From: a virus
Lineage: Duplodnaviria; Caudoviricetes
IMG/VR virus record: IMGVR_UViG_3300021960_000068
Span: 1 to 63,990 of that record
Length of the DNA stretch: 63,990 nt
Strand: one strand, 5' to 3'
Shown: piece after piece, positions 5,371 to 58,828 of the stretch
How the letters are laid out: every line of letters starts with the position of its first letter
Numbering within the stretch: position 1 is the first letter of the stretch
Translations under genes and position numbers: made by a program
The notes under the pieces: model-generated
What the model was told of the DNA's origin: nothing
The model's input: only the letters and a program-made list of their open reading frames with translations
Databases searched by the model: none

Positions 5371-6129
5371 TTACAGATAGTCAATCACTTGCGAGTGATC
5401 AACGTTGTCAATTAATTTCTGTACGGCTTGCTTTTTTAGCTCACTTACACGCACATAATTGCTTGTACCTTCTATGTTTAGTTTAGCCGCGATATCTTTA
5501 GCTTGATGCTTATCGCAGTCGAGTCCGTAGCTTAATCTTAGCACCTCGTACTCTTTTTCGTTTAGGTGCTTTTGAAGTAAGCCTTTGAGATAAATATTCA
5601 GTAGAGCTATATTGTATGGCTCTGATTTATCCGCGATTTGATGTATCATCATTTCGCCTTCGTCATTAGCCGGTTGCGCATCTATAGATAAAAATATAGA
5701 ATTAAAAAACATTGCAACCATTTTATGATCTTTAGGGTTTTTACGTATTTCGTTCATCTTATGCTCAGGTATACGTATATCGCCCCTGTGCATATCAATA
5801 CGCCTACGTATAGCACCTTTAATACGTTTACTAAAAAACGATTTTAAGGTTTTTTCTAAGTCATCAGAATCATCTAGCTTTTCCCAAAGAAGTTTATCAA
5901 CTGATTTAATTAAAGCTTCATTGCCGATTTGTATAAGATCGTTTATACTAAGTACGCCTGATGCTTGTTGTGTAGTTGAAAACTTACGCGCTAGATTTTC
6001 TACAAGCGGCATAAACTTAACTATAAGCTCATTACGTGTGTAATCTTTAAAATCCCAATTACCTTCAGGCATAGAAGCTTTTAAGTCTTCTTTGTACCTT
6101 ATATAGTTCTGTACGTTATACTTTTTCAT
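5371..6129 (-). CDS. Sigma-70-family RNA polymerase sigma factor
   Basis: Region 2 (PLVENLARKF...DLIQIGNEALIKSVDK, IRIP) and region 4 (LNEKEYEVLRLSYGL...DIAAKL). Confidence 0.9.
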   Translation of the reverse strand: MKKYNVQNYIRYKEDLKASMPEGNWDFKDYTRNELIVKFMPLVENLARKFSTTQQASGVLSINDLIQIGNEALIKSVDKLLWEKLDDSDDLEKTLKSFFSKRIKGAIRRRIDMHRGDIRIPEHKMNEIRKNPKDHKMVAMFFNSIFLSIDAQPANDEGEMMIHQIADKSEPYNIALLNIYLKGLLQKHLNEKEYEVLRLSYGLDCDKHQAKDIAAKLNIEGTSNYVRVSELKKQAVQKLIDNVDHSQVIDYL

Positions 6130-14643: not shown

Positions 14644-14736
14644 AGTTTTTACCGCTTGCTCGTTTTATTTTATGTCGCTAAGGCGATAGCTCAACTACGA
14701 CATTAGTTATACTGAATTTAAGCAGTTTGTTTCAAG

Positions 14737-14967: not shown

Positions 14968-15011
14968 AGTTATGAATTTAAGTATTTATATTTGTTATTT
15001 AGTATTTATAT

Positions 15012-15044
15012 TATTATCCAGTTGCTGTCGTATTTTGTTTGTAA
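15012..15044 (-). promoter_or_regulatory. Early promoter-like repeat, copy 3
   Basis: TTACAAACAAAATACGA-N8-GGATAATA. Confidence 0.75.
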
Positions 15045-15140
15045 AGAGTGTAGTTTTATTTAGTACTAGTTTTTGTTTAGTGGTTATTACACTACGCTTC
15101 TTTGTGTATAACTAATTAGTTTGTTAGTTAGTTACATTTA

Positions 15141-15173
15141 TATTATCCAAAATAGTTCGTATTTTGTCTGTAA
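15141..15173 (-). promoter_or_regulatory. Early promoter-like repeat, copy 2
   Basis: TTACAGACAAAATACGA-N8-GGATAATA. Confidence 0.75.
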
Positions 15174-15346
15174 TTATAGTTTGCTTATTAATTCGTCGAG
15201 CGTAATTTGCAAGCTAGTTTTAGTAACGTTGCCGTTTATATATTGGTTTAGTTCGTCGATTGCAGTTAGTATTTCGATTTTAGTATTAGAATTAATTTGC
15301 ATAGTAATTATTTTTAGTTATTTAGTAGCTTAATTGCTTACGTATA

Positions 15347-15379
15347 TATTATCCAAACGTACTCGTATTTTGTCTGTAA
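15347..15379 (-). promoter_or_regulatory. Early promoter-like repeat, copy 1
   Basis: TTACAGACAAAATACGA-N8-GGATAATA. Confidence 0.75.
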
Positions 15380-15582
15380 AAATAAAATTAGTTAGTTAGC
15401 TTCCGTCGGAAAAAGTCAAAACATTCTACGTAACTGGCTGATTTTCTGGTATATATATGTTAAAAAAGTCAAAAAGTTGGGGGGCCCGGTGAATTTAAAA
15501 CCGTTTTTGTAAATCGTTGATAATCAATAACATAGGGGGTAGCACTATACCCCAATATTTGTAACGTGATTTTTTCAATAGG

Positions 15583-15627
15583 GTGACATTAGGGTTATAA
15601 GTATATATAGTAAGGGGCTATTGTCAC
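15583..15627. promoter_or_regulatory. Inverted-repeat operator-like site, copy 2
   Basis: GTGACATTAG-(AT-rich)-AGGGGCTATTGTCAC. Confidence 0.65.
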
Positions 15628-15641
15628 TATATAACTAGTTT

Positions 15642-15671
15642 GTAAACTATCACTTTTATCTGTGAGTATAT
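15642..15671 (+). promoter_or_regulatory. Putative class II promoter GTAAA-N15-GTGAGTATAT
   Basis: Upstream of the first tail fibre gene; boxes identical to 23784-23813. Confidence 0.65.
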
Positions 15672-15695
15672 AACCTATAAAAGAATTTAAGAAAT

Positions 15696-18600
15696 ATGGC
15701 TATAATATATTCATACCCAGATATTGGCGACGTACAAGGCAATGACATCATAGTTATTACTGATGCTGATACAGGTAATGCAACCAAATCAGCGACAATA
15801 GACACATTGTCAGCCTATATTGCAGCTCAAGCTGGTGCAGGTACTGTGCAAAGCTTCAGTGTGGACTCTTCGTCTATACCAGGTATTACAACTGTAGTCA
15901 CAAACGCTACAACTGACCCATTGCTGACGGTGAGTATAACAGGAACACCTGGTCCTAACAAGTATTTAGACGGTACTGGCAACTGGACAACCCCTGCTGG
16001 TAGCGGAGGAGGTGCTTTAACGCTCACCACTGATGGAACTTCAGGAGCAGCCACGCTAGTTGGTACTGCACTTAACATACCTATCTACTCTACTAGTGGC
16101 GGTTCTGGAACTGTTGAAAGTATTACAGCGGTAGCTCCACTTACTGGAGGTACTATAACCACAACAGGTAGCATCGGAATAAATCAAGCTTCAGTATCTG
16201 CAAATGGTTACTTATCTTCTACAGACTGGAACACGTTTAACACAAAACAAAGTACTTCTGAAAAAGGGCAAGCTGATGGTTATGCTCCATTAGATAGTAA
16301 CAACAAGGTTCCAGCTGTTCACCTGCCAGATAGTTTGGTTGGAGCTGTGGTATATCAAGGCACGTGGAACGCTTCGAATAATATACCTGCGCTTCCAACA
16401 CCCGCTTTATCAAACAAAGGTCATTATTATATAGTAAGCGCTTCGGGTGTTTACTTAGGTATAACATACGCTATAGGTGATTGGGCTATATCAAACGGAA
16501 CTGATTGGCAAAAAGTAGATAACACGCAAGATGTTAACTCTGTATTCGGGCGTCAAGGTAATGTTGTGGCAAATCAAAGTGATTACGCTACGTTTTACGC
16601 AGATATAAATGACGCATATTCAGACGCAAAAGTAGATCTTAACTTAAATGTTGCTAGCGCGAACGCAACACAAGTACTTTCTTGGAGTGGAACTGATTAC
16701 GTTTGGGTAAACCAACAATCAGGTGGTGGCGGTGGTGATGTTATTTCTGTTAATGGACAACAAGGTGTTGTAAGTCTTGATACAGATGACATACCAGAAG
16801 GCGCTACTAATTTGTACAATGTACAATCTGATTGGACAGCTACTACAGGAGCAGCGGTTATACTTAATAAACCAACGCTTTCAACAGTAGCTACAACAGG
16901 TGAGTATAGTGATTTATTAAATACCCCTAATTTAGCTGCGGTAGCTACATCAGGTAGTTATAATGATCTCACAGATAAACCTACAATACCAGGTGGAACC
17001 AATATAGGTTCTACACCTTCAGCTTCAAATGTAGTCATAACATCGTCAACAGGCAGCGATGGTACTGTCGCAGCAGCCACTCAATCACTAGCAGGTGTAA
17101 TGACCGCAGCTGATAAGCTTAAGCTAGATGGCATAGCTAATAACGCTACAAACTACGGTGATTCAAATGTAAATCTTCTTTTAGATCAAGCTAATGCTCC
17201 TAATAATTATGTATTATCTTGGAATGGGCAAGCTTACACTTGGATAAATCAATCAGGCGGGTTAAACTCGTTTAACGTTCAGTCTGACACAGGCGGCGAT
17301 ATAACTGTTAATCAAGCTAACACATCGTTTAAAATTTCTGGCGGAACTGAGCTGCTCACGACTAGAACTAATAGCAGCATAGATATTTCTTTGCAAACAA
17401 CTGGTGTTGCTGCTGGTAGTTACACAAATACAAACATAACTGTAGATTCTAAAGGTAGAATAACCTCTGCTAGTAATGGATCTGGTAGTAGTGGTATAGA
17501 TGGTTCTGGAACAGCAACACAAATGGCTATATTTGATTCTACATCAACAATAACCTCTACACAAGCTGTAGCTGTAAATAATTCTAGCCAAGTAATAATG
17601 GATGTGTTGCGCAGTAGCAATTCCTATGCAGATGACACAGCTGCTTTAGCTGGTGGCGTTCCATACGGTGGACTATATAGAACTGACAGCACCGTTAAAA
17701 TAAACCTACTTGGAAGTAGCCCTAGTGATGATCCATACACACCTGTTAGTGGGTCAAGTTGGCTTACTTTAAATTATGAATATATAAGTGGTTCTAACCA
17801 AGTTATAAATTTATATGATTTTAATTGGAATACGGTTCAACCAGTAGATGGTAATAGTAATCCTATATCATTTGCACCAGTACCACTCGCTGATCCAGGT
17901 CGTAGTGTTTCTTACGGATCTTGGAAAGTAAGTGATAACTATGAAAAAATATGGTTTGCCGATAGTTTTCAAGGATCTATTATTAGCAATGATTATGGTC
18001 AAACATGGAGTAATTTTACAGGGCCAACAGTTGGTGATGGCGCTGGCCAAATTTATAGTTACAATTCTTCAATGTCTAAAGATGGAAAAGTTTTTTGTTA
18101 TCCCTCTACACCTCAAGGCCAAACAACGCCATTAACAATTGTTAAAAGTGATGATTTTGGACAAACATTTTCCAATATTAATCTAGGTGGAAATACTACT
18201 TTTGATCGGATCTCGTCATCATCCGTTTCTTCAGGAGGTAAGTATATAGCAATTATAGTTAGAATAACTTCTAGCTCTGCACTAACACTATGGATTAGTA
18301 ATGACTATGGTGCTAATTTTACACAATCAACAGGATCATTGCCACTTGGAACCTTCTCAGGCGATCGAGTAGTTGTTTCAGGTACAGGTAAATATATTTA
18401 CGTTATTATTAATTCTTCATCAGATGTTTATAGATCTATTGACTATGGGGTTTCTTTTAGTCTTTCTTCAACGAATTCAAACGGATCAGGATTGGCTTCT
18501 AATATAACTGATATAGACATTAGTGCCGATGGTCAGTCTTTAATATACGTAGATAATACCCAAGCGCGATATTTTTATAATGAATCTTTTGGAGTTGGCG

Positions 18601-24192: not shown

Positions 24193-25749
24193 ATGACTGA
24201 CAAAATTGTCAAAAATCTTAACTTTGGCCAAGAGGCTAAAGATAAGGTGTTTAAAGGTATAGATAAATTAACAAAGGCTGTTAGCTCCACACTTGGGGCT
24301 AGCGGCCAATGTGTAATACTAGAAGATGATCAGGGCAAACCTGTCATTACAAAAGATGGTGTAACCGTAGCAAACGCTATTACACTATTAGACCCAGTAG
24401 AAAATATGGGTGCTACGCTTCTAAAGGAAGCTGCTAGAAAAACTGTTCAAGAAGCTGGCGATGGAACAACAACGGCTACAGTACTAGCGCACTCAATTTT
24501 AACTGAAGCGTATAAAAATATCGATAAAGATAATATACGTAATATTAAAAACGGTATAACAAGTGCTGTTGATAAAGTAATTAATTACTTAGAAAAAAAG
24601 GTTATTGCAGTAGAAGGTAGTATGCTAGATGATGTAGCTACTATTAGTTGTAACAACGATGCTGAGCTTGGCAAAATAATCGGTGATGCTTTTAAAGCTG
24701 CTGGTGAAAACGGTGTTGTTATAATGGAACCTACAACAGAAGACAAAACAGAGTTTGAACTTGTCGATGGTGTGCAATACGAAAAAGGTTTAACAAACTC
24801 TCACTTTATAACAAGCAAAGAAAAACGTATAGCAGAGCTTGATAACCCACTTGTGTTACTAATTGAGTCACCTATAGAATCTGTACGCAAGATTCAATCG
24901 GTACTTGAATACGTAATTAAAAACAAAAAGCCTTTACTTATTATTGGTGATTTAGAAACCGAGGTGTTAGCTACGCTAGCAATGAATAAGGTTAAAGGTA
25001 ATATAAAAGTAAATGTAGTAAACGCACCTACATACGGTATAAATAAAAAAGACACAATGTCTGATTTAGCTATGCTAACCGGTGCTACTGTTATCAATGA
25101 AGATCTTGGTGATGACTTAGACGTTATAAACCCAGACTTCCTAGGATCATGTTTTAAGAGCACAACTAGTGATACAGATACAATACTTCAAGTAGATACT
25201 TCTACTGACGAGATAAAGCGTTTAATTGATTCAGTTAAAAAACTAATATCTAAAGCTAAAGCTCCCGGTGAAATTATAAGACTTGAAAAAAGATTAGCTA
25301 GACTATCAGCGAAAGTTGCAGTTGTAAAAATAGGGGCTAACTCAGAGATAGAGTTAAAAGAAAAATCAGATAGAGTCGAAGATGCTATCTGTGCTACTAA
25401 AGCCGCGGTAAAAGAAGGTATAGTATCTGGAGGTGGTATAGCTCTTCGCGATGCATCTAATAAAACCAAAGGTAAAACCGTTGGTGAAAAGATATTGCTA
25501 GAAGCTATTAAAGCTCCATTTAAAACTATACTAAATAACGCTGGACTAGAAGAGGTTGGTACGCCCGAAGAAGGTATGGGTGTTAATGTAGTTACAGGTG
25601 AAACTGTTCACATGGTTGATACGGGGATTATAGATCCTTTACTTGTAACTAAAAGTGCACTCAAACACGCGGCTTCAGTGGCTACCACTATATTATCTAC
25701 AGATTGTGTAATCAATAATTTAAGAGTTGGAGATGAAAGCAGTAGGTAG
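24193..25749 (+). CDS. groEL: Chaperonin GroEL (phage type)
   Basis: ITKDGVTVA, AGDGTTTATVLA, DRVEDA, GIIDP; no GGM tail. Confidence 0.97.
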   Translation: MTDKIVKNLNFGQEAKDKVFKGIDKLTKAVSSTLGASGQCVILEDDQGKPVITKDGVTVANAITLLDPVENMGATLLKEAARKTVQEAGDGTTTATVLAHSILTEAYKNIDKDNIRNIKNGITSAVDKVINYLEKKVIAVEGSMLDDVATISCNNDAELGKIIGDAFKAAGENGVVIMEPTTEDKTEFELVDGVQYEKGLTNSHFITSKEKRIAELDNPLVLLIESPIESVRKIQSVLEYVIKNKKPLLIIGDLETEVLATLAMNKVKGNIKVNVVNAPTYGINKKDTMSDLAMLTGATVINEDLGDDLDVINPDFLGSCFKSTTSDTDTILQVDTSTDEIKRLIDSVKKLISKAKAPGEIIRLEKRLARLSAKVAVVKIGANSEIELKEKSDRVEDAICATKAAVKEGIVSGGGIALRDASNKTKGKTVGEKILLEAIKAPFKTILNNAGLEEVGTPEEGMGVNVVTGETVHMVDTGIIDPLLVTKSALKHAASVATTILSTDCVINNLRVGDESSR

Positions 25750-29719: not shown

Positions 29720-29946
29720 TGAGTACTGTTATAAGAAAAATCAGTATTGGTTCTGATTACAAAAACGACGCGATGCATTATGCTGTTGGCCAGCAAGTAT
29801 ATGGCGGGCACGAGATATCGCATATTTTGTTTGAAGATAAAGATGCTTCTTATAACATATTTATAAAGAAAAACAACGAGGTATTGCCATGGAAGAAGTT
29901 TAATTCTAACATGGCAGTATCTGTTGAATATGATTTAGAATATTAA
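29719..29946 (+). CDS. Hypothetical protein
   Basis: IRKISIGSDYKNDAMHY. Confidence 0.75.
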   Translation: MSTVIRKISIGSDYKNDAMHYAVGQQVYGGHEISHILFEDKDASYNIFIKKNNEVLPWKKFNSNMAVSVEYDLEY

Positions 29947-30551
29947 TGAGAAGTGTTTTTGATTTTATAGTCACGCCTGTTGAAAGTAGGTATGACAATG
30001 AAGTTGATATAAATGGTAATAAACTTATAGTTAATTCTAGTATAGAAAACTTTAAGTTAATAAGTAGAAAAGCTATAGTTATTTCTACACCATCAGCTTA
30101 TTCAACACCAATAGAAGAAGGTGACGAGGTTATAATACATCACAACGTATTTAGAAGATATTATAACCAAAAAGGTAAAGAGGTTGATAGTAGCAAAACG
30201 CTAAACGATAATCAATACCTATGCCAATTAGATCAAATATATCTTTACAAAAATATATACCAGTGGAAACCTTTGGGTGAACATTGCTTTATAATGCCAA
30301 TAAAAAATACAGACGACTGGTCACAAGAACCAGAAGTAAAAAATAAAGGTATAGTAAAGATAGGTAATAAAACCTTAAAAACTTTAGGTATAAACGAAGG
30401 TGATCTTGTTGGGTTTAAATCTAATAGAGAGTTTGAGTTTGTTATTAACAAACAAAGACTATACTGTATGCAATCAAATGATATTTTAGTTAAGTATGAG
30501 TTCAAAGGAAACGAGGAAGAATATAATCCAAGCTGGGCAAAGAGCAGTTGA
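29946..30551 (+). CDS. GroES-like beta-barrel protein (possibly two domains)
   Basis: IEEGDEVIIHHN and INEGDLVGF...LYCM patterns. Confidence 0.55.
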   Translation: MRSVFDFIVTPVESRYDNEVDINGNKLIVNSSIENFKLISRKAIVISTPSAYSTPIEEGDEVIIHHNVFRRYYNQKGKEVDSSKTLNDNQYLCQLDQIYLYKNIYQWKPLGEHCFIMPIKNTDDWSQEPEVKNKGIVKIGNKTLKTLGINEGDLVGFKSNREFEFVINKQRLYCMQSNDILVKYEFKGNEEEYNPSWAKSS

Positions 30552-45300: not shown

Positions 45301-46408
45301 GCTTACCGATAGTCGAGGAGCTGCTATATACTTTACAGCTAATTTTGATAATCTAACAGACAATATACCAAACAATTTTGGAAATATAAATTATAATTCT
45401 AATGGTTACAATACTAGTTTTTATTTAAAAGGATTAGTACAAAATTTATCTACACCAATAAACAACAGATCTGTTTGTGATCCTAACCAAGTAGGCTTTA
45501 TGGGTGCACCTGGTAGTCAAAATTCTGGTTTTGCAAATGAAAGACAAACAACAGGTGGTCTTACAACTGGCGCTTTTTACGTATATTTTAATCCTATGAT
45601 TTCTAAATCTATGAGCGGTATGTTTAACCCTGAAGAGATTAATTTTAGATACCAAATAGCTTATAGAGTAGATTCTAACGATACTTGGTCTACAGCTGTT
45701 GATATAAATGGTAACGCTGCAGACTATTCAGGAACATGGAAATATGATGGTCAGGGCACAGAAGGTTTAGATAATCAATACTATGTTGGTTCTAACTGGC
45801 TTTCTAGCGGTAGTCCTCAGGTAGTAGTTGCTAAAATTGAAAATAACTCTGCACCAAGGTATGCTGGTTTAGTTTATGCGTTTGATACTCCGGGCGAATA
45901 TAGAATTTTGCACTCAAATATGGCTTCTACTTTTGGAAAGCTAACACCTCAAGGAGATAATCAAAACGGCTTCAGTTGTACCGCATTTCCTTATTACAGT
46001 ACTGAAATGGAGCATGTATTTGAAACAGGTGATTTTTATTATCCAGGTAGTTCTGCTGGTGGCATTGATGATGCTATAGCTGCAGGTAGCGGAGATTCTA
46101 ACAATGTGTTTAGATATAGAATAAGCCAGGGAAGTTGTTCATCATTGCCAAGCTTAAATATTTATGCTAGAGAACCTGTAGCGAAATATGTAACACAATT
46201 GTACACGGATCAAGCTTTAAGCACTAAACTTCAATCTATATCGGGAGGAACTTCTTATGTAATTAGAAGAATGGAAAACTTAAGCTCAACTGCTAGCGCT
46301 TATTTAAATCCTGAATATACTAAAAATGGTACGTACCAAATATCTTTTCAAAACACTACAGGGCTCGTGAGCACAGGGCTAGACAGCCCAAAACCTTGTT
46401 ATTATTAA
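42314..46408 (+). CDS. Tail stabilisation/nozzle protein (N-terminal part) with Ig-like extensions
   Basis: MNKDLDARL..GEYRDAVNI, FTDNRNQPRKIN, FSYRFK, SLKQNRNYQVG. Confidence 0.75.
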   Translation: MAEVKNAFIKSKMNKDLDARLIPQGEYRDAVNIQVSKSEGDDVGALENVLGNVSRADFEADSGVSNLTCIGYFVNEFDSNVYLFFTDYTDAYSTPIPTYDPNANNFIYQCSLASNPNPTTPATIKKLVEGSFLNFSTNRPIIGVNVLENFLFFTDNRNQPRKINISLANPNNVSNPTYYNIEENISVAKYYPYKPIDVIKETSTLGEYETTMYDAFSEFIPLNEGTPGGAPTPPNVNNPYYESNFPGDPQFLEDKFVRFSYRFKFSDGEYSLISPFTQICFIPKQDGYFLQGDEKQTFGSTIVKFMENKVNKIDLQIPLPSAGDQLLNNFHISEIDIIYKESDGLALQVVETIPIDASFANSVGSNTVFEYSYLSQKPYKTLPSSEITRVYDKVPVRALGQEIISNRVVYSNFQDKHTPPSFIKYQVGANEKYIPTNANSSKTSIEYPNHSLKQNRNYQVGFVLADRYGRQSTVILSNDQDPTSAGGFGADTVYLPYRPVNDSIDFLGDSLKISVNAVIQSNKNDINTPNQPGLYNGDSTSTDYNPLGWETYKIVVKQLEQEYYNVYTAGAMKGLPEDNTSDLNTSFITLVNDNINKVPRDLTEVGPQDKTFRSSVRLFGRVENNTANFSNIGNEQYLPNNTKLSFTTNAIEDLFDLFTIDTSTHAITSDQNPYHAFYKAESNPFVAEFITTQTTADQFGVIAESNQPYLIIENLAILETAPTISRLDLFYETSTVGDIDTLNQNAGPTSGGGVRNVNTAFQYTHFEDYATGTDVTNTFWFIDFGDNKIDPASAVLTSVTDNSGSGTNRYLEWTLVSLPDSEYKLQTNAYFYYSASPDNAGLQESYNFTFEVTTNQGISTVTGVSGLLQNSDPSIDNSNATTIQALVGQQSVLPNLTGKNGSNDQNSNTTTYTQNLTFSIVSSTGNGVYSVVNNNEVQNSNTQAAGTGSFTVRVTDNGNPTAKTVDKTFDIVFDKPNTNLLSYKAFPTLSGAINGTLTDSRGAAIYFTANFDNLTDNIPNNFGNINYNSNGYNTSFYLKGLVQNLSTPINNRSVCDPNQVGFMGAPGSQNSGFANERQTTGGLTTGAFYVYFNPMISKSMSGMFNPEEINFRYQIAYRVDSNDTWSTAVDINGNAADYSGTWKYDGQGTEGLDNQYYVGSNWLSSGSPQVVVAKIENNSAPRYAGLVYAFDTPGEYRILHSNMASTFGKLTPQGDNQNGFSCTAFPYYSTEMEHVFETGDFYYPGSSAGGIDDAIAAGSGDSNNVFRYRISQGSCSSLPSLNIYAREPVAKYVTQLYTDQALSTKLQSISGGTSYVIRRMENLSSTASAYLNPEYTKNGTYQISFQNTTGLVSTGLDSPKPCYY

Positions 46409-46410
46409 TT

Positions 46411-47844
46411 ATGGGAGCGGTAATAGAAGTAAAATATTTTAACTCTTTTTTACTAAGGAAGACAGTTGAAGCTGGAGCAACGGGTACAACACCTCCTATT
46501 TGGATGGGTAGCACAGGTATCCCGTCTGGTGATGGATCTTTTCCTGAAACCCCAATAGTTAATACAGATCAATCTAAAAGCTGGGTTGTAGAAGAAGCTC
46601 GTATACGTGGTGGTTATAACAATACAAATGTTGATTATGGCGTAAGAGCATATTTAGTAGATGAAGAACCAAATGGAAGTGTAAGAAGTAATGCGCTTAT
46701 ATATTCAGGTATATTTAATTCTAGAACTGGTATTAATGATACAAACGTTTTCAATGTTGCTGAGGATATAACTAAAGCCGCGGATCCAGCAAACGGTAGT
46801 ATACAAAAATTATATGCTGAAGATACAAACCTTATTATATTTCAAGAAAATAAAGTTAGTAGAGCGCTTATAGATAAAGATGCTATATATTCTGCTGAAG
46901 GCGGTGGAACTGTTACGTCTGCTAATTTAGTTATAGGTCAAATTGTTCCTTACGCTGGTAATTTTGGTATTAGTAGAAACCCAGAAAGCTTTGCTGTATA
47001 TGGCTATAGAAAATATTTTGTAGATAAAAACAGAAATGCTATACTACGCTTATCACAAGATGGTATTACTGAAATATCTAATTATGGTGTATATGATTAT
47101 TTTAGAGACGAACTTTCTAATTTAAACGTTGGTGATAAAGCTATAGGTGCTTGGGATGTATACACAAAACAATATGTAGTTAGTTTACAAGGTTCTAACA
47201 TAACACCGACAATATCAGGAGCGCAAGGTCAGTTTTCAGACACATATCAAACTTTAGCGTTTGATGAATCTGTACTTGGTTGGACTAGTAGATTTACTTA
47301 TAAACCAGAGCAAGTATTTAGTCTTAAGGCTAAGTTTTATAGTATAAATGATGGCGCTTTGTATGAACACAACTATCAAGAGTTTGGTAGCGATGATAAT
47401 AGGTCTAAGTTTTATGGCATATACTCTGATTCTAGGATTACATTTATATTTAACCCAAAAGTTAGCGCGTCTAAGGTATTTAAAACAGTAAACTACGAAG
47501 GCTCATCAGGTTGGGAAGTTTTTGAATTTAATGCAGCTAGAAGTTTTGATCAAAATGATACAGCTAATTTGGTTTATAGTTACGATGAAGGAAGTTATAT
47601 GCAAAACGGTATACAATATTACGCTGGGTTTTATAAAAAAGAAGGTAAGTATTTAGCTAACCTTATAAATAACAGTCCAGCTACATCTCAAGAAGTTGTA
47701 TACGGTGCAAGTGTTTCAGGTGTAAAAGGCTACTATGCAACTGTGACTATAAGAACAGATGATAGTACACAGGTGGCAGGAGCAGGTGGTAAGACTCGTG
47801 AGTTGTTTGCGGTATCTTCTGAATATGTAGAATCAAGTTATTAA
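46411..47844 (+). CDS. Tail stabilisation/nozzle protein (C-terminal part)
   Basis: GSIQKL, FGISRNPESF, RLSQDGITEIS, KKEGKY. Confidence 0.75.
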   Translation: MGAVIEVKYFNSFLLRKTVEAGATGTTPPIWMGSTGIPSGDGSFPETPIVNTDQSKSWVVEEARIRGGYNNTNVDYGVRAYLVDEEPNGSVRSNALIYSGIFNSRTGINDTNVFNVAEDITKAADPANGSIQKLYAEDTNLIIFQENKVSRALIDKDAIYSAEGGGTVTSANLVIGQIVPYAGNFGISRNPESFAVYGYRKYFVDKNRNAILRLSQDGITEISNYGVYDYFRDELSNLNVGDKAIGAWDVYTKQYVVSLQGSNITPTISGAQGQFSDTYQTLAFDESVLGWTSRFTYKPEQVFSLKAKFYSINDGALYEHNYQEFGSDDNRSKFYGIYSDSRITFIFNPKVSASKVFKTVNYEGSSGWEVFEFNAARSFDQNDTANLVYSYDEGSYMQNGIQYYAGFYKKEGKYLANLINNSPATSQEVVYGASVSGVKGYYATVTIRTDDSTQVAGAGGKTRELFAVSSEYVESSY

Positions 47845-50593: not shown

Positions 50594-53500
50594 ATGGCTA
50601 AATACAAGATTGGTACGGATCTATATGATTTACCTGAAGAAAAAGTAGAATCTTTTTTGTCTAAATATCCTGATGCTGTAGAAGTTACAGAAGAAATACA
50701 AACTGACCCTACGGAGGGAAAGACAAACGGTGCTGTGGAAACGGATGCGGCTGTAGCACCAGTAACAACTCCAAGCAGAGCATCCATGATTGTAGATGCT
50801 CAACCAGAGAGTACGGTATCAGACTCGGCAGATACTTCTGGGGAATTACAAGCAAATGATCAAGGTTATTTTAGACAAGAAAGAAAAAAAGGTAGATCAG
50901 CAGATTCTATTAGAAGAGATACATACGAAGAAGGTTCTTTAGCTGCTATAGAATTTGATAAAAAATCTGATGAAAGAAAACAGCAAGCTACGTTAGCAAC
51001 TAAAGAAATACAAACAGCGCAAGAAAATATACCTCAAAAAGATATACAATCGCAGCAAGCAAACATATATTTTGATTTACCAAGTATAGCCCCTAGAAAT
51101 AAAATAGATTATGTCTATCAAGGTGTTTATGGTGGCCAATCTAGAAAGCCTATGTTTGAATCTGATGAAGATTATACTACTTATTTAAAGGATAAGCTAG
51201 GTGATAAGTATGATCAATATTTAGAGTTTAATAAAACAGGTTCTATAACGCCTAATGGTACTCAAGAAAATGAAGACGAATTAAGATCATTACAAGTAGA
51301 TGCTAGAAATCAAATATCTGCTAAAATAAGTAATGACATGTTATATAATGTTCCTGAAGATGTGCAGCGGTACATGACATCAAGTCCTGTTTTTGCCAGT
51401 GGTAATACTCTGGAAGAACAAAAATTTGCTATAGATGAATTAGGAAACAACATAGGTCAGATGAGAGTCAACTATGCTGAAGGAGTTAAAGCTTATAACG
51501 AAAACGCTGTTCCGTTAATAGATCAAATAAAATCTATAGATAACACTATAAAAGATTTAGGTGGAACTAATAAAGGTTTACAATTTTATGAAGCTGGTCA
51601 AGTAGGGGGTTTAGACTCTCCTAAACGTATACAGCAGTATAATGATTTAATAGAACAAAGAAATTCTTTATTAAACCAATATAATGAAGGAGGTTTCAAT
51701 GTTTTATACGATGGTTTAATATCTCAAGAAAGAGTAATAAATCAAGAAGCTAAAAATTATATTAACCTAGTTAATACTAGCAGAAATAAAATAGTAGATT
51801 CTGAATTATTAAAAGAAGCTATATCAAAAGATTACTCCGCGACAGCTAGAGTTGGTAGAGCTTTTGATGAGTTTTTTTTACAGAGCGGTAGAAATGTTTT
51901 AGATCTTAGCGCTGAAATAGGTTTACAAGCTTATAAATTCTCTTTAATGCCTCAATACAGGCCAGCTATAGATGATGTTATAAGCGTTGTTCAGCAGAAC
52001 AATAAAAATTATAACTTAGAAATGGATGCTAAAAGAAAGCAACTTCCAACAGCTCCAACGTTAGACGATATAGGTGAAAATAATATAGGATTTTTTGATT
52101 GGTTTTCTGTAGCCATGCAAGATAACTCTCCGACTATAGCTACGACTTTTATACCAGGTGGTTTAGCAGTTAAAGGTGCTGCTGGTGTTAAAGCAGCTGT
52201 TAAAACTGGAAGCTACGCTGCTAAAAAAGCCGCATTACAAAACCAAAAAAAGCTTTGGTTGGCTGGTAAAAGAACATTACAAACAGCTTTCTTTGTTGCT
52301 GAAACAGGTGGTCAATATGGTAGGCTGCAAACAGAAGAAGGTGATAGAGAAAAACAAATATCTTTATTACAATCTCAACTAAACGAAACTGAAAGTTTAG
52401 AAGATAGAACAAAAATTTATAATAAAATTGAAGAATTAAAATCTGTAGAAGATTATTCTTTATTTCAAAAAGCCTTTACTTCTTTTGGATATGGAACTAC
52501 AGCTACACTAGCCGAAACTTTTGGTACTTTAAAGCTTATACAAGGCGGTAAAGCTTTAGCTAAAAACATAGGTACTCAAGCCGCTAAAAAAGAATTTTAT
52601 TCTAAGCCATCTACATTTGCTGCTGGCATCATAAGCAAAGCAGTTCCTGGTCTAAGCCCTTTGGTTAAAGGTGTTGCTGTAGAAGAAATGGAAGAAACAC
52701 TTACGCAAGTAAGTCACAACATGTTTGACATGTTTGTTTTAGGTGAAGACAAAAATTTAATAGATGGTTTAGATAAAGATTTTTTTGCTAATGTAGCTGT
52801 TACTAGCTTTGGTATTATGTCTCCTAAGACTACCGGCAATGTTGTTAACATTATTAAAAATGAATTTAGAACTAAACAAGAAGTAGTAGATAATCAAAAC
52901 TTAGCTGTAGAATTAATTGAATTAAACGAGGCTATACCTGCTAGTGCAGAAGACGCTAAAGTTATAAGAGAAAGAAAAAGAAACATATTAGAAGAGCTCG
53001 CTTTAAACGACGCTGTCAGTCTTCACAAACTTAGGTACATGACACCTGTTCAAATAGAAGAGGTTGCTGATTTAAATAGACAAAAACGTAAGTTAAAAGA
53101 GCAAATGTTTTCTCTTGGTAGAACAGGTGAAAGATCTAAAGTTCAAGAGCAAAAGCAAGCTGAAATAAACAAAGAGCTTTATGCTATAGAAAGAAAACAA
53201 CAAGAGATTTTAAATTCAAAAGAAAGAGCTAATAGACAAAAAGCTAAACAAGTTTCTGAGGAATTAGGAGATAGCTTTGCTAATGCAGACGCTGCTTACT
53301 GGTATGGTTTTAATGATTTTTATAATGAAATTGCTATGGCCCAAATGGGTGATGGTGATTTTATAAGCGCTACTGCAGAAGTAAATAATGAATTAGGTAT
53401 ACCTGTTTTAGATTATAAAAATTTAGACGAAGAGTTAAAAAAATATAATGAAACTGATAGAGCTGCTATCAAACTTGGTTTACTAGGCGAAATAAATACT

Positions 53501-56500
53501 GAAACAGGTGAGGTAATACAGCCTCCTGTATATGCCATGCAGATTGGTAAAGATATTATAATAAATCAACCTCTTATAGATCAACAAATAGGTTTAGCGC
53601 CTACAAGCGGCGGTGCTAAATACGCTGCTCTGGCTCCTCTTGAAGAACTTTTTCACCTTAATAACAAGGGTAAGAAAATGAAATTCGATGGTGATGCTAA
53701 GCTTGCCGTTGATGAAGCTATTAAAGTATTAGAAAATAAACTAGAGCTAGGCGAAATATCTCAAGAAAACTTTAACGACTTAACTGAAAGGTTTAAACTT
53801 TATAAAGATGGTGAGACATTTGACGTGGAAGAACTCATAGCGCAGATGAACAACGCTGTTGCATTAGGCGATATAAAACTTAGCGATATAGCTAGTACAC
53901 CATCTTTAAAATCTTTTTTAAACGGAGCTATACGTAATGTATTTGGAGATCAAAGCTGGATGCTTAATCTTAAAACATCAGATGATGTGTTTAATTTTAT
54001 TAAAAACTTTCAAGCTGATATTCAAGGAGAGGTAAGTCTTCAACTACCAGACGAAGATGATTCTACTATTAAACAATCTAAAATATACCAAGAAGTAGAA
54101 ACATTTAAAGATGATTTAGTAAATGAACAAACTAAAGATGCTACTGCTTTTTTAATTGCTGATAAACTAGAAAACGAAGTTGATCGTAGATTAAAATTAG
54201 ATGTTGATCCAGAGACCAAAGAAGATATAGTTAGAAACTTTTTGTTCGATGATAAAAGAGGTTTGCTTGGGTTATTACAAAAATACGATCCAGCTAGAAA
54301 CGAAAGTATAATGGGTTACTTAAATTCAACTACGCCTGGCGGTAAATTACTAGACGCTAGACTTATTGAGTTTTATCAAAATGATCCTAGATACAATCAA
54401 ATAATTCAGTCAACTACAGATGAAGCTGTTCAACGTAAAGCCGAAAGAGTAACTTCAGAAGACACCACAGAGACAACTGCTGAAGATGTTACAGATAAAC
54501 CTTTAGCCAAAAAACCTACTGAAACTGTAGTATATAGTGACGAAGTTTTAAGTAGCGTAGGCGCGGCTAACGCTGAAGCGCTAGAAAATAGAATTACAAA
54601 AGAAATACAAAAAGCGTTTAAAGGTCAAGATATCTCTAGGTTTAAAGAGCTAAAAGATATACCAAAAAACATAACACAGTTATACGCTGATATGTTTGGA
54701 CTTTCAACTGTAGACGGTATCGTTGATTTTAAAAGAAACTTTCCTAAGCTAGACGAAGGAGCTGTTAGAAAAATACGTACGTTTTTAAATAGAAATGCTG
54801 AAGATGATTTTCGTAGGTTTCCAAAAACAAAAGGTGACGATAAGAAAGCTACTGGTGTAAAGCAAACTAAGCTAGGTAAAGTTATGTATGATGCTAATGA
54901 TAATTTTATTGGCACATTAAAACAATACAAAGACATACTTCAAGGTAAAAATATAACTCTTCCAGCTTACAATGGTGAGATGATTGAGTTTAATAGGTTA
55001 GATAAAGACGGTAACAAGTTACCATTATATAGAGACTCACAACACTATAAAGCAGCGTTAAAGTTTCATATACAAAATCGTATAGCTGAAGATGTTATGC
55101 CTGATAAAGCTAAGAGATTAAGCGCTGGACTTAAGTTTAGTAAAAAAGCATTGATAGATGTTACTCAGGCTAGAGATATTAACGCGGTAGCAAAATTACT
55201 AGGTATATCTAAAATTACTGTAAATGATAACAATAGAGTTGAAAAACAAAAGCAAATGGAAGAAGCTATAGTAGCTGCTAAAATTCCTAGTTGGATGTTT
55301 GAGGGTTCTAAGTTTGGTAATTTTGCTAGAAGAAAAGTTAACGGTGTTAGAGTAGATTTACCCGCTAGAGGTGGTTTATATTACGGCGGTAAAGATCCAG
55401 CGTATCAAAGAGCTTTAGGTTTAGCAAAACAAAACGATGCTGATTACAATATAAAACCCCCTAAAAGAGTTAATATTAAAAAAGCTTTTACTAAAGAGGG
55501 ACAACAACAAGGTAAAGATAATTTAAAAGCTTTAGAGTTTTTTGGTAATAAATTAGCTGATGCTGTAGCTAAAAATCAAATGCCACTAGAAATAGCTTCA
55601 TTATTTATTTCTTCTGGTTATCAAGCTACAAATGGTATTATAAAAATAGCCGCACCATTTAAATACTTTTCTAAAGTTTTTAAATACGGAACTACACCAA
55701 AACATAGTAAAGGTGAAAAGTTTAGAGAAGAACACAATCCTCCTGCTTCAGTAATTGGAGCCACATTAATATATGGTATAGCAACTAATAATATGAGTAC
55801 TGTAATGCCTAATATTAAAAACAACTATTATCAAACTAAACTTTCTAAAGCTGATGATCAAAAACTAGATGACGCTAAGTTAGATGCTACGTTACCTGTT
55901 GGAACAACTATAGCAGATAACCCTGCTATTAGATTTATTGAAGCTGGTATTGATCTTAATAGTATTGTTAATTACGAAACAGGTCAGACTATAGCAGAAG
56001 AGCTAGGTGTTGCTTTAAAATCTAGTGATGTAAATGTAGATACTGTATTTGAACAGAATAAAATACTAAAAGAAGTATTAAGTGGAGATATAACAGCTAA
56101 AACAGGGCAGGATAGATTAAATGAATTTGCTAAATTAAAATCTATACCTAAAGCTGGTGTTGGTAATAATAACGAAAATAATACTATTAAGTTTAGCAAG
56201 CAAGTACCTAATCAAGAAATACTTGATAACTTAGGTAATGCAGATCAGGCTATGGCTAATGCTAGAAACCCTGAAGCGCCTGTTAAAAAAATACGTGTAT
56301 TTGATTTTGATGATACATTAGCTAAATCAAATAGTCAAGTTCTTTACGAACTTTCCGATGGCACAACAGGTAAATTAAACGCTACTCAATTTGCGGAAAG
56401 ATCTAGCGAACTACAAGAGCAAGGAGCTGAGTTTGATTTTTCAGAGTTTAGTAAGGTTATTGATGGCAAAAAAGGGCCTGTGTTTAAAGCTATAGAAAAC

Positions 56501-58828
56501 ATAGTTAAAGCTAGAGGTGCTGAAGACGTGTTTATACTTACAGCTAGACCTGCTAACGCTGCTGGTCCTATAAAAGAATTTATGGACGCGCTTGGTGTTA
56601 ACTTACCTATAGAAAATATTGTAGGTTTAGGCGATGGTAAGGCGGAAGCTAAAGCACGTTGGATGACGGGTAAAGCTGCTGAAGGTTACAACGACTTTTT
56701 CTTTGTAGATGATGCGTATAAAAATGTTAAAGCAGTTCAAGATGCGTTAGATGTGTTTGATGTTAAATCTAAAACACAACAAGCTAAAATTAAGTTTAGT
56801 AAAGCATCTGATCTTGATAAAGGTTTTAATAACATACTAGAAAACAAAACCGGTATAGCATCTGAAAAAGAATACGGTAGAGTAAAAGCTGAAGTAGCTG
56901 GAGCTGGTAAAGGTAGATTAAATTTCTTTATACCACCGTCAGCTGAAGACTTTACAGGTTTATTATACGCTACGCTTGGTAAAGGCAAACTAGGTGATCA
57001 ACAAATGGCGTGGTATAAGACTCATTTGTTAAACCCATATGCTAGAGCTATGAATGAATTATCATCTGCTCGTATAGCTATGATGAATGATTATAAGTCA
57101 TTAAAGAAACAATTAGAAATAGTACCTAAAGACTTACGTAAGAAAGTTCCAGGCGAACCGTTTACGCGTGAGCAAGCTGTACGTGTGTACATATGGAATA
57201 AACAAGGTATGGATATACCTGGAATAAGTAAAAAAGATCAAGCTGATCTTAGTAAGTATGTAATTGACAACGCTGAGCTACAGGTATTTGCTGATAGACT
57301 TATCGCTATACAAAAAGGTGATCAGTACGCTGGGCCTAAAGAAGGTTGGCCAGCTGGTACAATAACCACTGACATGCTTGAAGGTCTTAACACTACAAAA
57401 CGAACTAAGTACTTAGAGCAATGGCAGCAAAATGCAGATGTTATATTTTCTGAAAAGAACCTAAACAAACTTGAAGCTGCTTATGGTAAACCATATCGTA
57501 AAGCTTTAGAGAATATGCTACAACGTATGAAGTCTGGTCGTAATAGAAACTTCCAAGGCGATACGTTAACAGGTAGAGTTACTGATTGGCTTACAGGTAG
57601 TATTGGTACAATAATGTTCTTCAACACAAGATCAGCAATACTTCAAACTATATCTAGTATTAACTTTGTTAACTTCACTGATAACAATATACTAGCTGCG
57701 GGTAAAGCTTTTGCAAATCAAAAACAATACTGGTCTGACTTTATGACGCTTATGAACTCTGACTTCTTAAAAGAACGTCGTGGTGGTTTACGCATCAACG
57801 TTAACGAAGCTGATATTGCAGACATGGCAAAAAGAGGTGGAGCTAGAGGTGTTATAAATAAACTACTTGAGTTTGGTTTTACACCTACACAGATAGCAGA
57901 TAGCTTTGCTATCGCCTCTGGTGGCGCTACGTTTTATCGTAATAGAATAAAGTCTTTGAAAAAACAAGGTATGACAGATGCTGAGGCTGAAGCTCAAGCG
58001 TTTGTAGATTTTAGAGAGACAGCAGAAGAGTCACAACAGTCGTCAAGACCTGATAGAATATCAATGCAACAAGCCGGTCAATTAGGACGTCTTGTATTGG
58101 CTTTTGCTAACACGCCAGCTCAGTATGCTAGACTTATAAAGAAAGCTGCTAGCGATCTTAAGAATGGCAGAGGTGATGCTAAGACTAATATAAGTAAGAT
58201 TATATACTACGGTGTTGCGCAAAACTTATTGTTTAATGCTTTACAACAAGCTTTGTTTGCGTTTGCTTTTGATGATGATGAAGAAGATACAGACGAGCAG
58301 CAAAAGAAATATGTTAGCATAGCTAACGGTATGATGGACTCACTTCTAAGAGGTATGGGGTTAGGCGGCGCTGTAGTTTCAGTAGGTAAAAATGCTATTA
58401 TACGTATTATAAACGAGATGGAAAAGAAACAACCTAAGCTTGAGAAAGTAGGTTATGAACTTACTAAACTATCTCCACCTATATCTGCTAAGCTATCACG
58501 TGTAAACCAAGCCGCGAGGTCTTACCAATGGGATAAAAAAGAAATGATGGAAAAAGGCTGGAGCTTAGATAACCCAGCTTACTTAGCAGGTGCTAATGTT
58601 ATAGCAGCACTTACCAACATACCGCTTGATAGAGCTGTAAAGAAAACTAATAACGTAGTACAAGCTACATCACAAGATTTAGAAACTTGGGAACGCTTAG
58701 CGTTACTAGGTGGTTGGCAAGACTGGGAAATCGGTATTGACGAGGAAAAACCTAGTAACAAACCGCAACCTAGAAAAACAAAACCAAGATCTAGAAAAAC
58801 TAAAAAACGTAAAACCACAACAAGATAA
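50594..58828 (+). CDS. Giant multidomain (polyvalent) internal virion protein, 2744 aa
   Basis: HAD motifs VFDFDDTL/ILTARP/FVDD, EEHNPP motif, degenerate zincin LEELFH, sigma-r2-like segment, C-terminal ETAEESQQSSRP helical region. Confidence 0.75.
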   Translation: MAKYKIGTDLYDLPEEKVESFLSKYPDAVEVTEEIQTDPTEGKTNGAVETDAAVAPVTTPSRASMIVDAQPESTVSDSADTSGELQANDQGYFRQERKKGRSADSIRRDTYEEGSLAAIEFDKKSDERKQQATLATKEIQTAQENIPQKDIQSQQANIYFDLPSIAPRNKIDYVYQGVYGGQSRKPMFESDEDYTTYLKDKLGDKYDQYLEFNKTGSITPNGTQENEDELRSLQVDARNQISAKISNDMLYNVPEDVQRYMTSSPVFASGNTLEEQKFAIDELGNNIGQMRVNYAEGVKAYNENAVPLIDQIKSIDNTIKDLGGTNKGLQFYEAGQVGGLDSPKRIQQYNDLIEQRNSLLNQYNEGGFNVLYDGLISQERVINQEAKNYINLVNTSRNKIVDSELLKEAISKDYSATARVGRAFDEFFLQSGRNVLDLSAEIGLQAYKFSLMPQYRPAIDDVISVVQQNNKNYNLEMDAKRKQLPTAPTLDDIGENNIGFFDWFSVAMQDNSPTIATTFIPGGLAVKGAAGVKAAVKTGSYAAKKAALQNQKKLWLAGKRTLQTAFFVAETGGQYGRLQTEEGDREKQISLLQSQLNETESLEDRTKIYNKIEELKSVEDYSLFQKAFTSFGYGTTATLAETFGTLKLIQGGKALAKNIGTQAAKKEFYSKPSTFAAGIISKAVPGLSPLVKGVAVEEMEETLTQVSHNMFDMFVLGEDKNLIDGLDKDFFANVAVTSFGIMSPKTTGNVVNIIKNEFRTKQEVVDNQNLAVELIELNEAIPASAEDAKVIRERKRNILEELALNDAVSLHKLRYMTPVQIEEVADLNRQKRKLKEQMFSLGRTGERSKVQEQKQAEINKELYAIERKQQEILNSKERANRQKAKQVSEELGDSFANADAAYWYGFNDFYNEIAMAQMGDGDFISATAEVNNELGIPVLDYKNLDEELKKYNETDRAAIKLGLLGEINTETGEVIQPPVYAMQIGKDIIINQPLIDQQIGLAPTSGGAKYAALAPLEELFHLNNKGKKMKFDGDAKLAVDEAIKVLENKLELGEISQENFNDLTERFKLYKDGETFDVEELIAQMNNAVALGDIKLSDIASTPSLKSFLNGAIRNVFGDQSWMLNLKTSDDVFNFIKNFQADIQGEVSLQLPDEDDSTIKQSKIYQEVETFKDDLVNEQTKDATAFLIADKLENEVDRRLKLDVDPETKEDIVRNFLFDDKRGLLGLLQKYDPARNESIMGYLNSTTPGGKLLDARLIEFYQNDPRYNQIIQSTTDEAVQRKAERVTSEDTTETTAEDVTDKPLAKKPTETVVYSDEVLSSVGAANAEALENRITKEIQKAFKGQDISRFKELKDIPKNITQLYADMFGLSTVDGIVDFKRNFPKLDEGAVRKIRTFLNRNAEDDFRRFPKTKGDDKKATGVKQTKLGKVMYDANDNFIGTLKQYKDILQGKNITLPAYNGEMIEFNRLDKDGNKLPLYRDSQHYKAALKFHIQNRIAEDVMPDKAKRLSAGLKFSKKALIDVTQARDINAVAKLLGISKITVNDNNRVEKQKQMEEAIVAAKIPSWMFEGSKFGNFARRKVNGVRVDLPARGGLYYGGKDPAYQRALGLAKQNDADYNIKPPKRVNIKKAFTKEGQQQGKDNLKALEFFGNKLADAVAKNQMPLEIASLFISSGYQATNGIIKIAAPFKYFSKVFKYGTTPKHSKGEKFREEHNPPASVIGATLIYGIATNNMSTVMPNIKNNYYQTKLSKADDQKLDDAKLDATLPVGTTIADNPAIRFIEAGIDLNSIVNYETGQTIAEELGVALKSSDVNVDTVFEQNKILKEVLSGDITAKTGQDRLNEFAKLKSIPKAGVGNNNENNTIKFSKQVPNQEILDNLGNADQAMANARNPEAPVKKIRVFDFDDTLAKSNSQVLYELSDGTTGKLNATQFAERSSELQEQGAEFDFSEFSKVIDGKKGPVFKAIENIVKARGAEDVFILTARPANAAGPIKEFMDALGVNLPIENIVGLGDGKAEAKARWMTGKAAEGYNDFFFVDDAYKNVKAVQDALDVFDVKSKTQQAKIKFSKASDLDKGFNNILENKTGIASEKEYGRVKAEVAGAGKGRLNFFIPPSAEDFTGLLYATLGKGKLGDQQMAWYKTHLLNPYARAMNELSSARIAMMNDYKSLKKQLEIVPKDLRKKVPGEPFTREQAVRVYIWNKQGMDIPGISKKDQADLSKYVIDNAELQVFADRLIAIQKGDQYAGPKEGWPAGTITTDMLEGLNTTKRTKYLEQWQQNADVIFSEKNLNKLEAAYGKPYRKALENMLQRMKSGRNRNFQGDTLTGRVTDWLTGSIGTIMFFNTRSAILQTISSINFVNFTDNNILAAGKAFANQKQYWSDFMTLMNSDFLKERRGGLRINVNEADIADMAKRGGARGVINKLLEFGFTPTQIADSFAIASGGATFYRNRIKSLKKQGMTDAEAEAQAFVDFRETAEESQQSSRPDRISMQQAGQLGRLVLAFANTPAQYARLIKKAASDLKNGRGDAKTNISKIIYYGVAQNLLFNALQQALFAFAFDDDEEDTDEQQKKYVSIANGMMDSLLRGMGLGGAVVSVGKNAIIRIINEMEKKQPKLEKVGYELTKLSPPISAKLSRVNQAARSYQWDKKEMMEKGWSLDNPAYLAGANVIAALTNIPLDRAVKKTNNVVQATSQDLETWERLALLGGWQDWEIGIDEEKPSNKPQPRKTKPRSRKTKKRKTTTR

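Follow-up and report, generated by a model that had tools for sequence, protein, structure and literature searches.

A predicted sigma domain 2-like module, probably able to dock on RNA polymerase, within a giant protein of a marine podophage

Background

How the earliest genes of a phage come to be transcribed has a bearing on how far it depends on the host, how exposed it is to host defences and which hosts it can infect. The routes described so far run through host-type promoters, through an injected RNA polymerase (RNAP), or through an injected enzyme that modifies the host polymerase. Here we examine a protein of 2744 amino acids (aa) encoded by IMG/VR virus record IMGVR_UViG_3300021960_000068, a sequence of 63,990 nucleotides (nt) given as one strand; this whole stretch is called the window, and all coordinates are relative to it. 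A preliminary description of the window, made by eye, had noticed a segment resembling sigma-70 region 2 inside this protein and had proposed that the phage injects a sigma-like domain which directs host core polymerase to seven repeated promoter-like sequences. We report that the module containing this segment, here called d1, is probably sigma-2-like in its predicted fold and, by co-folding, is predicted to sit on the clamp helices of a flavobacterial beta-prime subunit, and we weigh what such a module might do.

The closest described systems differ in what is delivered and when. In phage T4, the sigma-2-only late factor gp55 attaches to the clamp helices of beta-prime and recognises a -10-like element, TATAAATA. 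The virion RNAPs of N4-like and crAss-like phages are giant proteins, encoded beside tail genes, that are ejected into the cell and start early transcription from phage-specific promoters. Polyvalent proteins, as described in the main text of Iyer et al. 2017 (PMC5512222), are very large, multidomain and delivered with the DNA of phages and conjugative elements; zincin-like processing peptidases and a 'jump-start' of transcription are among the themes of that text. The same main text presents T4 Alt as a head-packaged protein that is injected with the DNA and redirects host polymerase to early phage promoters (PMC5512222). Searches of full-text literature, covering main texts, returned no report of a virion-delivered sigma.

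Results

Predicted fold of the module

The module and its immediate surroundings are as follows.

50594..58828, + strand: giant open reading frame (ORF) of 2744 aa, an uninterrupted frame in the structural module, 3' of a crAss-muzzle-like gene
54059..54418, + strand: sigma-factor domain 2-like module (d1) by predicted fold, residues 1156-1275, isoelectric point (pI) 4.7; contains 54152-54376
54419..54535, + strand: acidic, threonine-rich linker, predicted disordered, residues 1276-1314, pI 4.5
54536..54943, + strand: basic helical domain (d2), residues 1315-1450, pI 9.4, confidently modelled

The segment picked out by eye, LIADKLENEVDRRL...LDARLIEFY, is present as it had been quoted (residues 1187-1261; nt 54152-54376), inside the interval 54100-54400 that had been assigned to it. 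AlphaFold2, supplied with residues 1130-1450 and 19 homologues (20 rows), returned a model with a mean predicted local distance difference test (pLDDT) value of 72.6, in which two helical domains are joined by a disordered acidic linker. Domain d1 occupies model residues 27-142 (protein residues 1156-1271) at a pLDDT of about 77-88 and d2 occupies model residues 186-321 (protein residues 1315-1450), while the linker (model residues 143-180) stays below 50.

Sigma factors head the structural neighbours of d1. In a wide VIA-align search of 48,161 Protein Data Bank (PDB) chains, all cluster representatives, rows 1-12 were sigma domain 2. The top row was 8x6g_H (Z 6.8, root-mean-square deviation (rmsd) 3.2 Å, 90 aligned residues) and row 2 was 7d7d_F of the T4 late-transcription complex (Z 6.4, rmsd 3.0 Å, 92 aligned), a chain that we take to be gp55; 8hkc_E gave Z 6.3 (rmsd 4.2 Å, 99 aligned). 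Sigma was named in 23 of the 50 rows, and six further rows were chains of RNAP initiation complexes that were taken as sigma. When the 298 best chains of a Foldseek search were realigned with VIA, sigma chains (Z 4.2-6.7) took 30 of the first 31 rows, and nothing unrelated scored above 3.0 except one chain at 4.4.

The neighbouring helical domain d2 serves as a control for d1, and it yields no such list. Folded alone from 25 sequences (pLDDT 87.5, predicted template modelling score (pTM) 0.76), d2 reached a best Z of 3.3 in the wide VIA-align search of the PDB, with no sigma-named row in 50 and MarR-type rows at 2.4-2.8; its best Foldseek match had an E of 1.9. Because all Z values for d1 are below 8, a range common for helical models, the argument for its fold rests on the composition of these lists and not on score. 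On that composition we consider it probable that d1 has a sigma-2-like fold. As modelled, d2 is a candidate new fold. Its hidden Markov model (HMM) matches 40 ORFs in 80 related loci, where d2 usually stands beside d1, and comparison with extracytoplasmic function (ECF) sigmas gave an hhalign E of 0.025 across 14 columns.

Predicted docking on the beta-prime clamp helices

Co-folding with the beta-prime clamp helices had been put forward as a check on the by-eye reading, and d1 passes it. Over three runs the median score of d1 (20 rows) with a Flavobacteriaceae-labelled beta-prime fragment was 0.72; the controls scored 0.24 at best, then 0.01 and 0.00. Of the solved complexes 58 of 80 reach this mark, as do 2 of 110 mismatched pairs. 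At least 58% of contacts recur between runs, the pLDDT of the partner is at least 81, and d1 is placed on the clamp helices in all three runs.

The contacts involve both clamp helices on the beta-prime side (fragment residues 58-86) and, on the phage side, residues 1182-1190 and 1207-1220, the 'ETKEDIVRNFLFD' helix. Among them are D1211, R1214 and N1215 of 'EDIVRN', the stretch that the by-eye alignment had placed at sigma region 2.1/2.2. Fold and docking models together support a sigma-2-like, probably RNAP-docking module, and we lean slightly towards the view that d1 really binds the host polymerase.

Sequence of the module and its variants

The by-eye match to sigma region 2 survives in one respect and fails in another: predicted fold and predicted docking bear it out, and sequence similarity, which is no better than that of shuffles, does not. 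As a sequence match the likeness amounts to chance by Pfam, profile, hhalign and column-shuffle tests alike and, judged in this way, d1 is not a member of the sigma-70 family. A permissive hhalign run nevertheless reproduces in its best local alignment the register first seen by eye, pairing 'IVRNFLFDDKRGLLGLLQKYDPARNESIMGYL' with a sigma stretch. Five residues (R1222, G1223, Y1231, N1244 and R1256) are invariant over the 20-row d1 alignment, and these presumably fall at the conserved G-L, F-D and I-R positions of sigma region 2. The same alignment shows little or no variation at Y1242, N1244 and R1256.

Two large-scale comparisons place d1 among long viral proteins. The d1 profile has 317 relatives among 1.84 billion representative proteins, and most of the 150 listed exceed 1000 residues; no free-standing d1 form was identified among the matches listed, of which the longer entries were examined. 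In the ESM Atlas the top named clusters for d1 are viral and carry Sigma70_r2 on 19% and 21% of their members (scores 0.93 and 0.92), and 17 of 30 matches share the Sigma70_r2 family set; the recognition value is low (2112), which makes this a lead only.

The d1 position in related giant proteins is filled by at least six sequence types, each of which shows by eye a G-L...Y/F-x-P...Y/F-[ILV]-x...R pattern. The common type vB is homologous to the present type (A), in that one HMM finds both; the two are 19-25% identical, with Y1242, N1244 and R1256 fixed between them. Types vC, vE, vF and vG match the present type weakly (hhalign E 1.5e-3, 7.6e-3, 8.6e-4 and 1.9e-4, respectively). Set against the sigma region-2 alignment, three variants score above their column shuffles, the observed score being reached by 0 of 39 shuffles for vC, 0 of 40 for vE and 1 of 40 for vF; vB (4 of 40), vG (13 of 40) and the present type (15 of 40) do not.

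Early promoter-like repeats

Two sets of features on the leftward strand bear on what a delivered initiation factor might read.

10717-10749, 12677-12709, 13704-13736, 14250-14282, 15012-15044, 15141-15173 and 15347-15379, - strand: seven promoter-like repeats
5371..6129, - strand: free-standing sigma-70-family gene of the phage (phrog_351, E 2.3e-20)

The seven repeats of the form TTACARAYAAAATACGA-N8-GGATAATA, described earlier from inspection of the window, are real: five copies are exact and seven are found at three mismatches or fewer, against none in 100 shuffles. All seven point leftward into the small-ORF early region (10717-15379). Five of them stand 13-44 nt upstream of the start of a - strand ORF and a sixth precedes an ORF of about 41 codons; after the repeat at 15141 no ORF was seen. 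In the direction of transcription the seven lie upstream of the phage's own sigma gene (5371-6129, - strand), and for this reason the phage's own sigma cannot be the first to read them. A tRNA-Gln (UUG) gene (10752-10825, - strand) sits directly upstream of the repeat at 10717-10749.

The Bacteroidetes-type promoter consensus TTTG-N17-21-TAnnTTTG is not enriched in the window (4 found, 3.2 expected, all inside ORFs). The early repeats do not resemble this consensus. The repeat core, at one mismatch or fewer, occurs in 10 of 50 related records and in six of the nine related records that are at least 90% complete. Its presence does not track HMM-detected d1, and the comparison neither supports nor refutes a link between promoter and domain.

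In four RNA-library runs, contigs match parts of 10500-15023 at 90-99% identity, though contigs of this kind carry no information on starts, strands or levels; none from these four runs falls in 15024-15700. Separately, in metatranscriptome run X6 the interval 12240-12587 has a contig word depth of 42-380 against less than 10 elsewhere, with loose ends running into unlike sequence; this peak may be a conserved element common to other organisms.

Architecture and relatives of the giant protein

Outside d1 and d2, three further regions of the giant protein could be described.

53642..53656, + strand: degenerate zincin motif EELFH, residues 1017-1021, at the HExxH site of most relatives
56258..56791, + strand: HAD-type phosphatase-like domain (DFDDT), residues 1889-2066, matching the polynucleotide kinase/phosphatase PHROG phrog_415 (E 1.4e-5)
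56831..58693, + strand: C-terminal stretch (about residues 2080-2700), conserved and covered by about 110-116 of 120 homologues

The giant protein is present on 294 viral contig stretches. It has 140 homologues, all of them metagenomic and on a scale of 1.7-4 kilobases (kb); megablast and tblastn searches of 50,697 phage records with the giant ORF gave no match. Coverage over 120 homologues is that of a mosaic: residues 1 to about 100 and about 1850 to 2700 are widely common and residues 1150-1450 are common to about 100 of the 120, while residues 100-1000 are shared by only about 18. Since unrelated domains stand in one chain and its middle is exchanged between relatives, the giant protein is, as we read its architecture, a mosaic 'polyvalent' protein.

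At the zincin site, 75 of the 95 relatives with the anchor motif have HExxH, and 19 (the present protein and 18 others) have EE[LI]FH; E1018 and H1021 are invariant in a 14-sequence alignment. With HExxH replaced by EELFH or EEIFH, the putative processing peptidase of this subgroup may lack activity. The HAD/polynucleotide kinase (PNK)-like domain is accompanied in some homologues by Zeta_toxin/AAA_33 kinase Pfam families, a combination that hints at virion-borne end healing of RNA or DNA. For the conserved C-terminal region the nearest named ESM Atlas clusters carry LPD39 on 28% of members (0.95) and LPD38 on 88% (0.93), again a lead only; a Pfam scan of the giant ORF matched no LPD or zincin family. 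About 1400 residues (1-1000 and 1450-1880) received no assignment in Pfam and PHROG scans.

Three further observations concern the same chain. A motif EEHxxPAS at window positions 55730-55744 (residues 1713-1717) has E1713, H1714 and P1717 invariant in 14 full-length homologues, and no family was assigned there. The protein ends in a strongly basic tail of KPRSRKTKKRK type (residues 2701-2744; window 58694-58825; pI 10.7), which could bind nucleic acid. In one relative (L018:9809-18351) the giant gene is divided between two frames of 2014 and 844 codons with an overlap of about 30 bases, which a sequencing error, a frameshift or a programmed shift could explain.

Genome, host and gene context

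The remaining landmarks of the window are as follows.

1-15,400, - strand: leftward replication and small-ORF genes, including the free-standing sigma-family gene at 5371-6129
rightward genes, + strand: tail, GroEL/GroES, lysis, terminase (from 30768) and portal (from 32994)
46396..47844, + strand: tail gene with a crAss muzzle C-terminal domain (Pfam PF25729 crAss_MUZ_C, E 5.9e-11)

The virus record is rated complete by CheckV. The closest cultured relatives of its portal, at 42% identity, are found in the Flavobacterium phage genus Elemovirus; phages of Cellulophaga, Tenacibaculum and Maribacter come next. Since the nearest cultured portal relatives are flavobacterial phages, the host is likely to belong to the marine Flavobacteriia, and the phage itself is likely a marine flavobacterial podophage of about 64 kb.

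The muzzle-domain gene closes the structural genes and is followed by three small ORFs and then by the 2744-codon ORF; on the strength of the Pfam match it marks a crAss-like order of tail and cargo genes. In Elemovirus the syntenic position ends in a 3694-aa gene annotated 'structural protein', the product of which is 26% identical to the giant ORF over a match restricted to residues 621-874. From this synteny and from its place after the muzzle-like gene, the giant protein is most probably a virion component that leaves the particle together with the DNA.

The phage's own sigma matches Pfam Sigma70_r2 at 21.3 bits and r4 at 17.1 bits, both under the cut-offs, and passes the cut-off in the genome scan once neighbouring stretches are counted. 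As a positive control, it aligns with flavobacterial primary sigma at an hhalign E of 1.3e-4. This sigma has 8000 scored relatives, of which the 120 listed are 84-97% identical, and the phage lineage is therefore, by this count, very common in public marine metagenomes and in sea water. The ORF adjoining the sigma gene (6116-6751, - strand) has a near-threshold HTH_11 match (24.5 bits, cut-off 25) and is a possible partner or regulator of the phage sigma.

Chaperonin genes of GroEL type (24193-25749) and GroES type (29946-30551) lie on the + strand. A query of species genomes with the GroEL gene returned 40 loci, mostly on phage contigs, in metagenome-assembled genomes (MAGs) whose labels span many phyla (archaea, Vibrionaceae, Clostridium and others). 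This spread points to frequent mis-binning of contigs from this phage group.

Discussion

The best explanation of these observations as a whole, which we put forward tentatively and with slightly less than even confidence, is that the sigma-2 module of an ejected polyvalent protein captures the host core polymerase. The giant protein would be packaged in the virion and ejected with the DNA; d1 would then dock on the host beta-prime clamp helices and so capture host core polymerase for the incoming genome, prior to any phage gene expression. The most likely use of such a complex would be initiation at the seven phage-specific early promoters, in the style of the sigma-2-only late factor of T4, and the basic d2 (1315-1450) or another part of the protein may assist with the upstream promoter block. 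That d1 acts as an injected initiation factor for the seven repeats is, taken as a claim of its own, doubtful. Equally doubtful is the fuller proposal that a minimal sigma-like factor, within the ejected virion protein of an abundant marine flavobacterial phage clade, would load host core RNAP onto phage-specific early promoters at infection, with d2 perhaps replacing sigma-4.

A number of results weigh against this explanation, and many of them would also fit an alternative that we regard as unlikely and yet the strongest of its rivals, namely that d1 is a generic helical bundle of a structural or ejection protein, a part for packing, spacing or binding the DNA end, with a convergent likeness to sigma and no contact with RNAP. 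No profile method gives significant sigma similarity. Pfam found no Sigma70 family at E<=10 in the whole ORF, in two sub-pieces, in the 20 alignment members or in seven related-locus variants. Neither phmmer with the giant ORF nor an HMM of the d1-d2 alignment matched any PDB sequence (0 matches). For hhalign, sigma alignments were drawn from 30 sigma genes (6 primary, 24 ECF-sized) of five MAGs, four labelled Flavobacteriaceae and one Bacteroidetes. The d1 family aligned with three flavobacterial sigma alignments and with the phage's own sigma family at E 0.09-0.27 and a probability below 1% (E 0.13 for primary sigmas, 0.27 for ECF sigmas), and 15 of 40 column shuffles equalled or beat the score of the present d1 against sigma region 2. 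When 196 giant proteins were scanned with a sigma-2 HMM, its filters switched off, the top score was 3.7 bits and the best match fell at the expected position in 6 of 50 anchored proteins. Among the 150 listed d1 relatives, most of them above 1000 residues and the longer of them examined, none was identified as a free-standing sigma.

The structural evidence has its own weak side. With all values below 8, and 6.8 the highest, the Z scores of d1 fall in a range that helical domains often reach by arrangement alone. Foldseek with the two-domain model found nothing at E<0.5 in the PDB, where about 10 of 48 rows were chains of sigma-bearing complexes, and nothing at E<0.3 in BFVD, where 9 of 50 rows were named sigma. 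The co-folding partner was a stand-in for the beta-prime of the true host: residues 230-380, which contain the clamp helices, were taken from two MAGs with a Flavobacteriaceae label and a third with a Bacteroidetes label. The pass itself may reflect the model's memory of many solved sigma/beta-prime complexes, likeness to which can inflate such scores; it shows likeness, not binding.

A generic bundle nonetheless leaves several results without a ready account. Sigma chains top both structural rankings, where unrelated helical proteins stay at Z 3.0 or below with one at 4.4, and the equally helical neighbour d2 draws no sigma list. All three co-fold runs set d1 on the clamp helices, far above the controls at 0.24, 0.01 and 0.00. 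The Atlas lead and the signal in three other variants (vC, vE and vF) are, moreover, independent of both structure tools.

A second set of difficulties concerns what a docked d1 would do. Structure searches found no sigma-4 or helix-turn-helix match in d2, and d1 is embedded in the 2744-aa chain, internal to one uninterrupted 2744-codon frame, so that it is not a free, dissociable subunit; proteolysis might set it free, the zincin motif nearby being degenerate (EELFH) in this protein. Because of both points the module would be at most sigma-2-only and not a complete sigma. The repeat core is present in loci L007 and L018 (7 sites each), where d1 was not found by HMM, and in L048 (5 sites), which has type vB with a d1 about 20% identical. 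One promoter core thus goes with very different modules, and a sequence-reading subunit is not obviously expected to vary so much. Close relatives swap the middle of the giant protein, as in L008, which is 81% identical over 1513-2637 and has nothing in common between about 90 and 1512. Finally, the presence of the giant protein in the virion, on which delivery at time zero would depend, rests on synteny.

These points bear on a second alternative, which we judge distinctly unlikely: d1 would bind the clamp helices, on the same evidence of fold and docking, without acting as an initiation factor, and another factor would read the repeats. It might be a sigma decoy, ousting the host factor and silencing or diverting host transcription, or a tether that holds host polymerase at the ejected protein and the leading end of the DNA, for example in transcription-driven genome entry. 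Besides the missing sigma-4 match next to d1 and the strong variation of the module among phages that keep the same promoter core, this account would suit the fact that the aromatic pair of sigma region 2.3 is not evident in the sequence of d1. The other effector-like parts of the protein (the HAD/PNK-like domain and the zincin-like motif) would fit the theme of host takeover by polyvalent proteins in the main text of PMC5512222. Against this alternative, a phage with no recognisable RNAP of its own cannot simply switch the host polymerase off. Y1242, N1244 and R1256, moreover, hardly vary although they lie where a sigma would face the DNA, and repeats unlike the host consensus leave the need for a specificity factor at time zero unanswered.

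That the giant protein hides a very divergent virion RNAP of crAss-like or N4-like kind, with the sigma-like module as its promoter-recognition part, is very improbable: the gene does lie at the site of crAss-like virion polymerase genes (an order marked here by the muzzle-domain match), about 1400 residues (1-1000 and 1450-1880) have no assignment and the early repeats are long and phage-specific, but, as the preliminary description had seen, the ORF has no DxDxD-type catalytic motif (0 matches to D.D.D), Pfam finds no RNAP family in the ORF or the genome (a T7-type search was uninformative, its control being silent), and the N-terminal 1000 residues recur in no more than about 18 of 120 homologues, a spread too narrow to resemble that of an essential catalytic core.

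Comparison with known systems

If an ejected sigma-2-like module does capture host core polymerase, it would be a third way of starting phage transcription, next to polymerase injection (N4, crAss, phiKZ) and the use of host-sigma promoters (T7, T4), and a transcription-hijacking domain would be added to the catalogue of polyvalent-protein effectors. Our models also suggest that a sigma-2 fold can escape detection by sequence profiles, and that a reading by eye may here have caught what profile methods miss.

Free sigmas of the ECF and group 3-4 kind (Sigma70_r2, PF04542) resemble d1 in several ways: in predicted fold it matches SigB, sigma-32, SigW, AlgU, SigC, CnrH, sigma-E and others at Z 5.4-6.8, the clamp helices are its predicted docking site, and it shares with them the order of acidic domain, flexible linker and basic domain. 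It differs in that d1 has no Pfam profile match, d2 has no sigma-4 match, and the module is not a free subunit.

Three systems of delivery invite comparison. The giant ORF resembles the genes of N4-like and crAss-like virion RNAPs in lying beside tail genes, its neighbour carrying a crAss-type muzzle domain; it differs in having neither a catalytic motif nor a polymerase family and, if our reading is right, a polymerase-binding factor is delivered instead. Points of contact with polyvalent proteins are the HAD/PNK-like domain, the HExxH of 75 of 95 relatives (EELFH in the present protein) and the LPD39/LPD38 lead; the point of departure is the sigma-like module, since 'sigma' has 0 occurrences in the main text of PMC5512222 and no such module figures among the domains described in its abstract and its passages on transcription. 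T4 Alt differs in mode of action, being an ADP-ribosyltransferase that acts on the alpha subunit, while the proposal for d1 is stoichiometric docking on beta-prime.

With T4 gp55 the module has in common, as predicted, the fold of sigma domain 2 and the docking site on the beta-prime clamp helices; gp55 reads TATAAATA, and the downstream block of the early repeats in the present phage is GGATAATA. T4 gp55 is small and free, is made during infection and needs gp33 and the sliding clamp. The module of the present phage, with no detectable sequence relation to it, is internal to a 2744-aa, probably virion-borne protein and would act at time zero.

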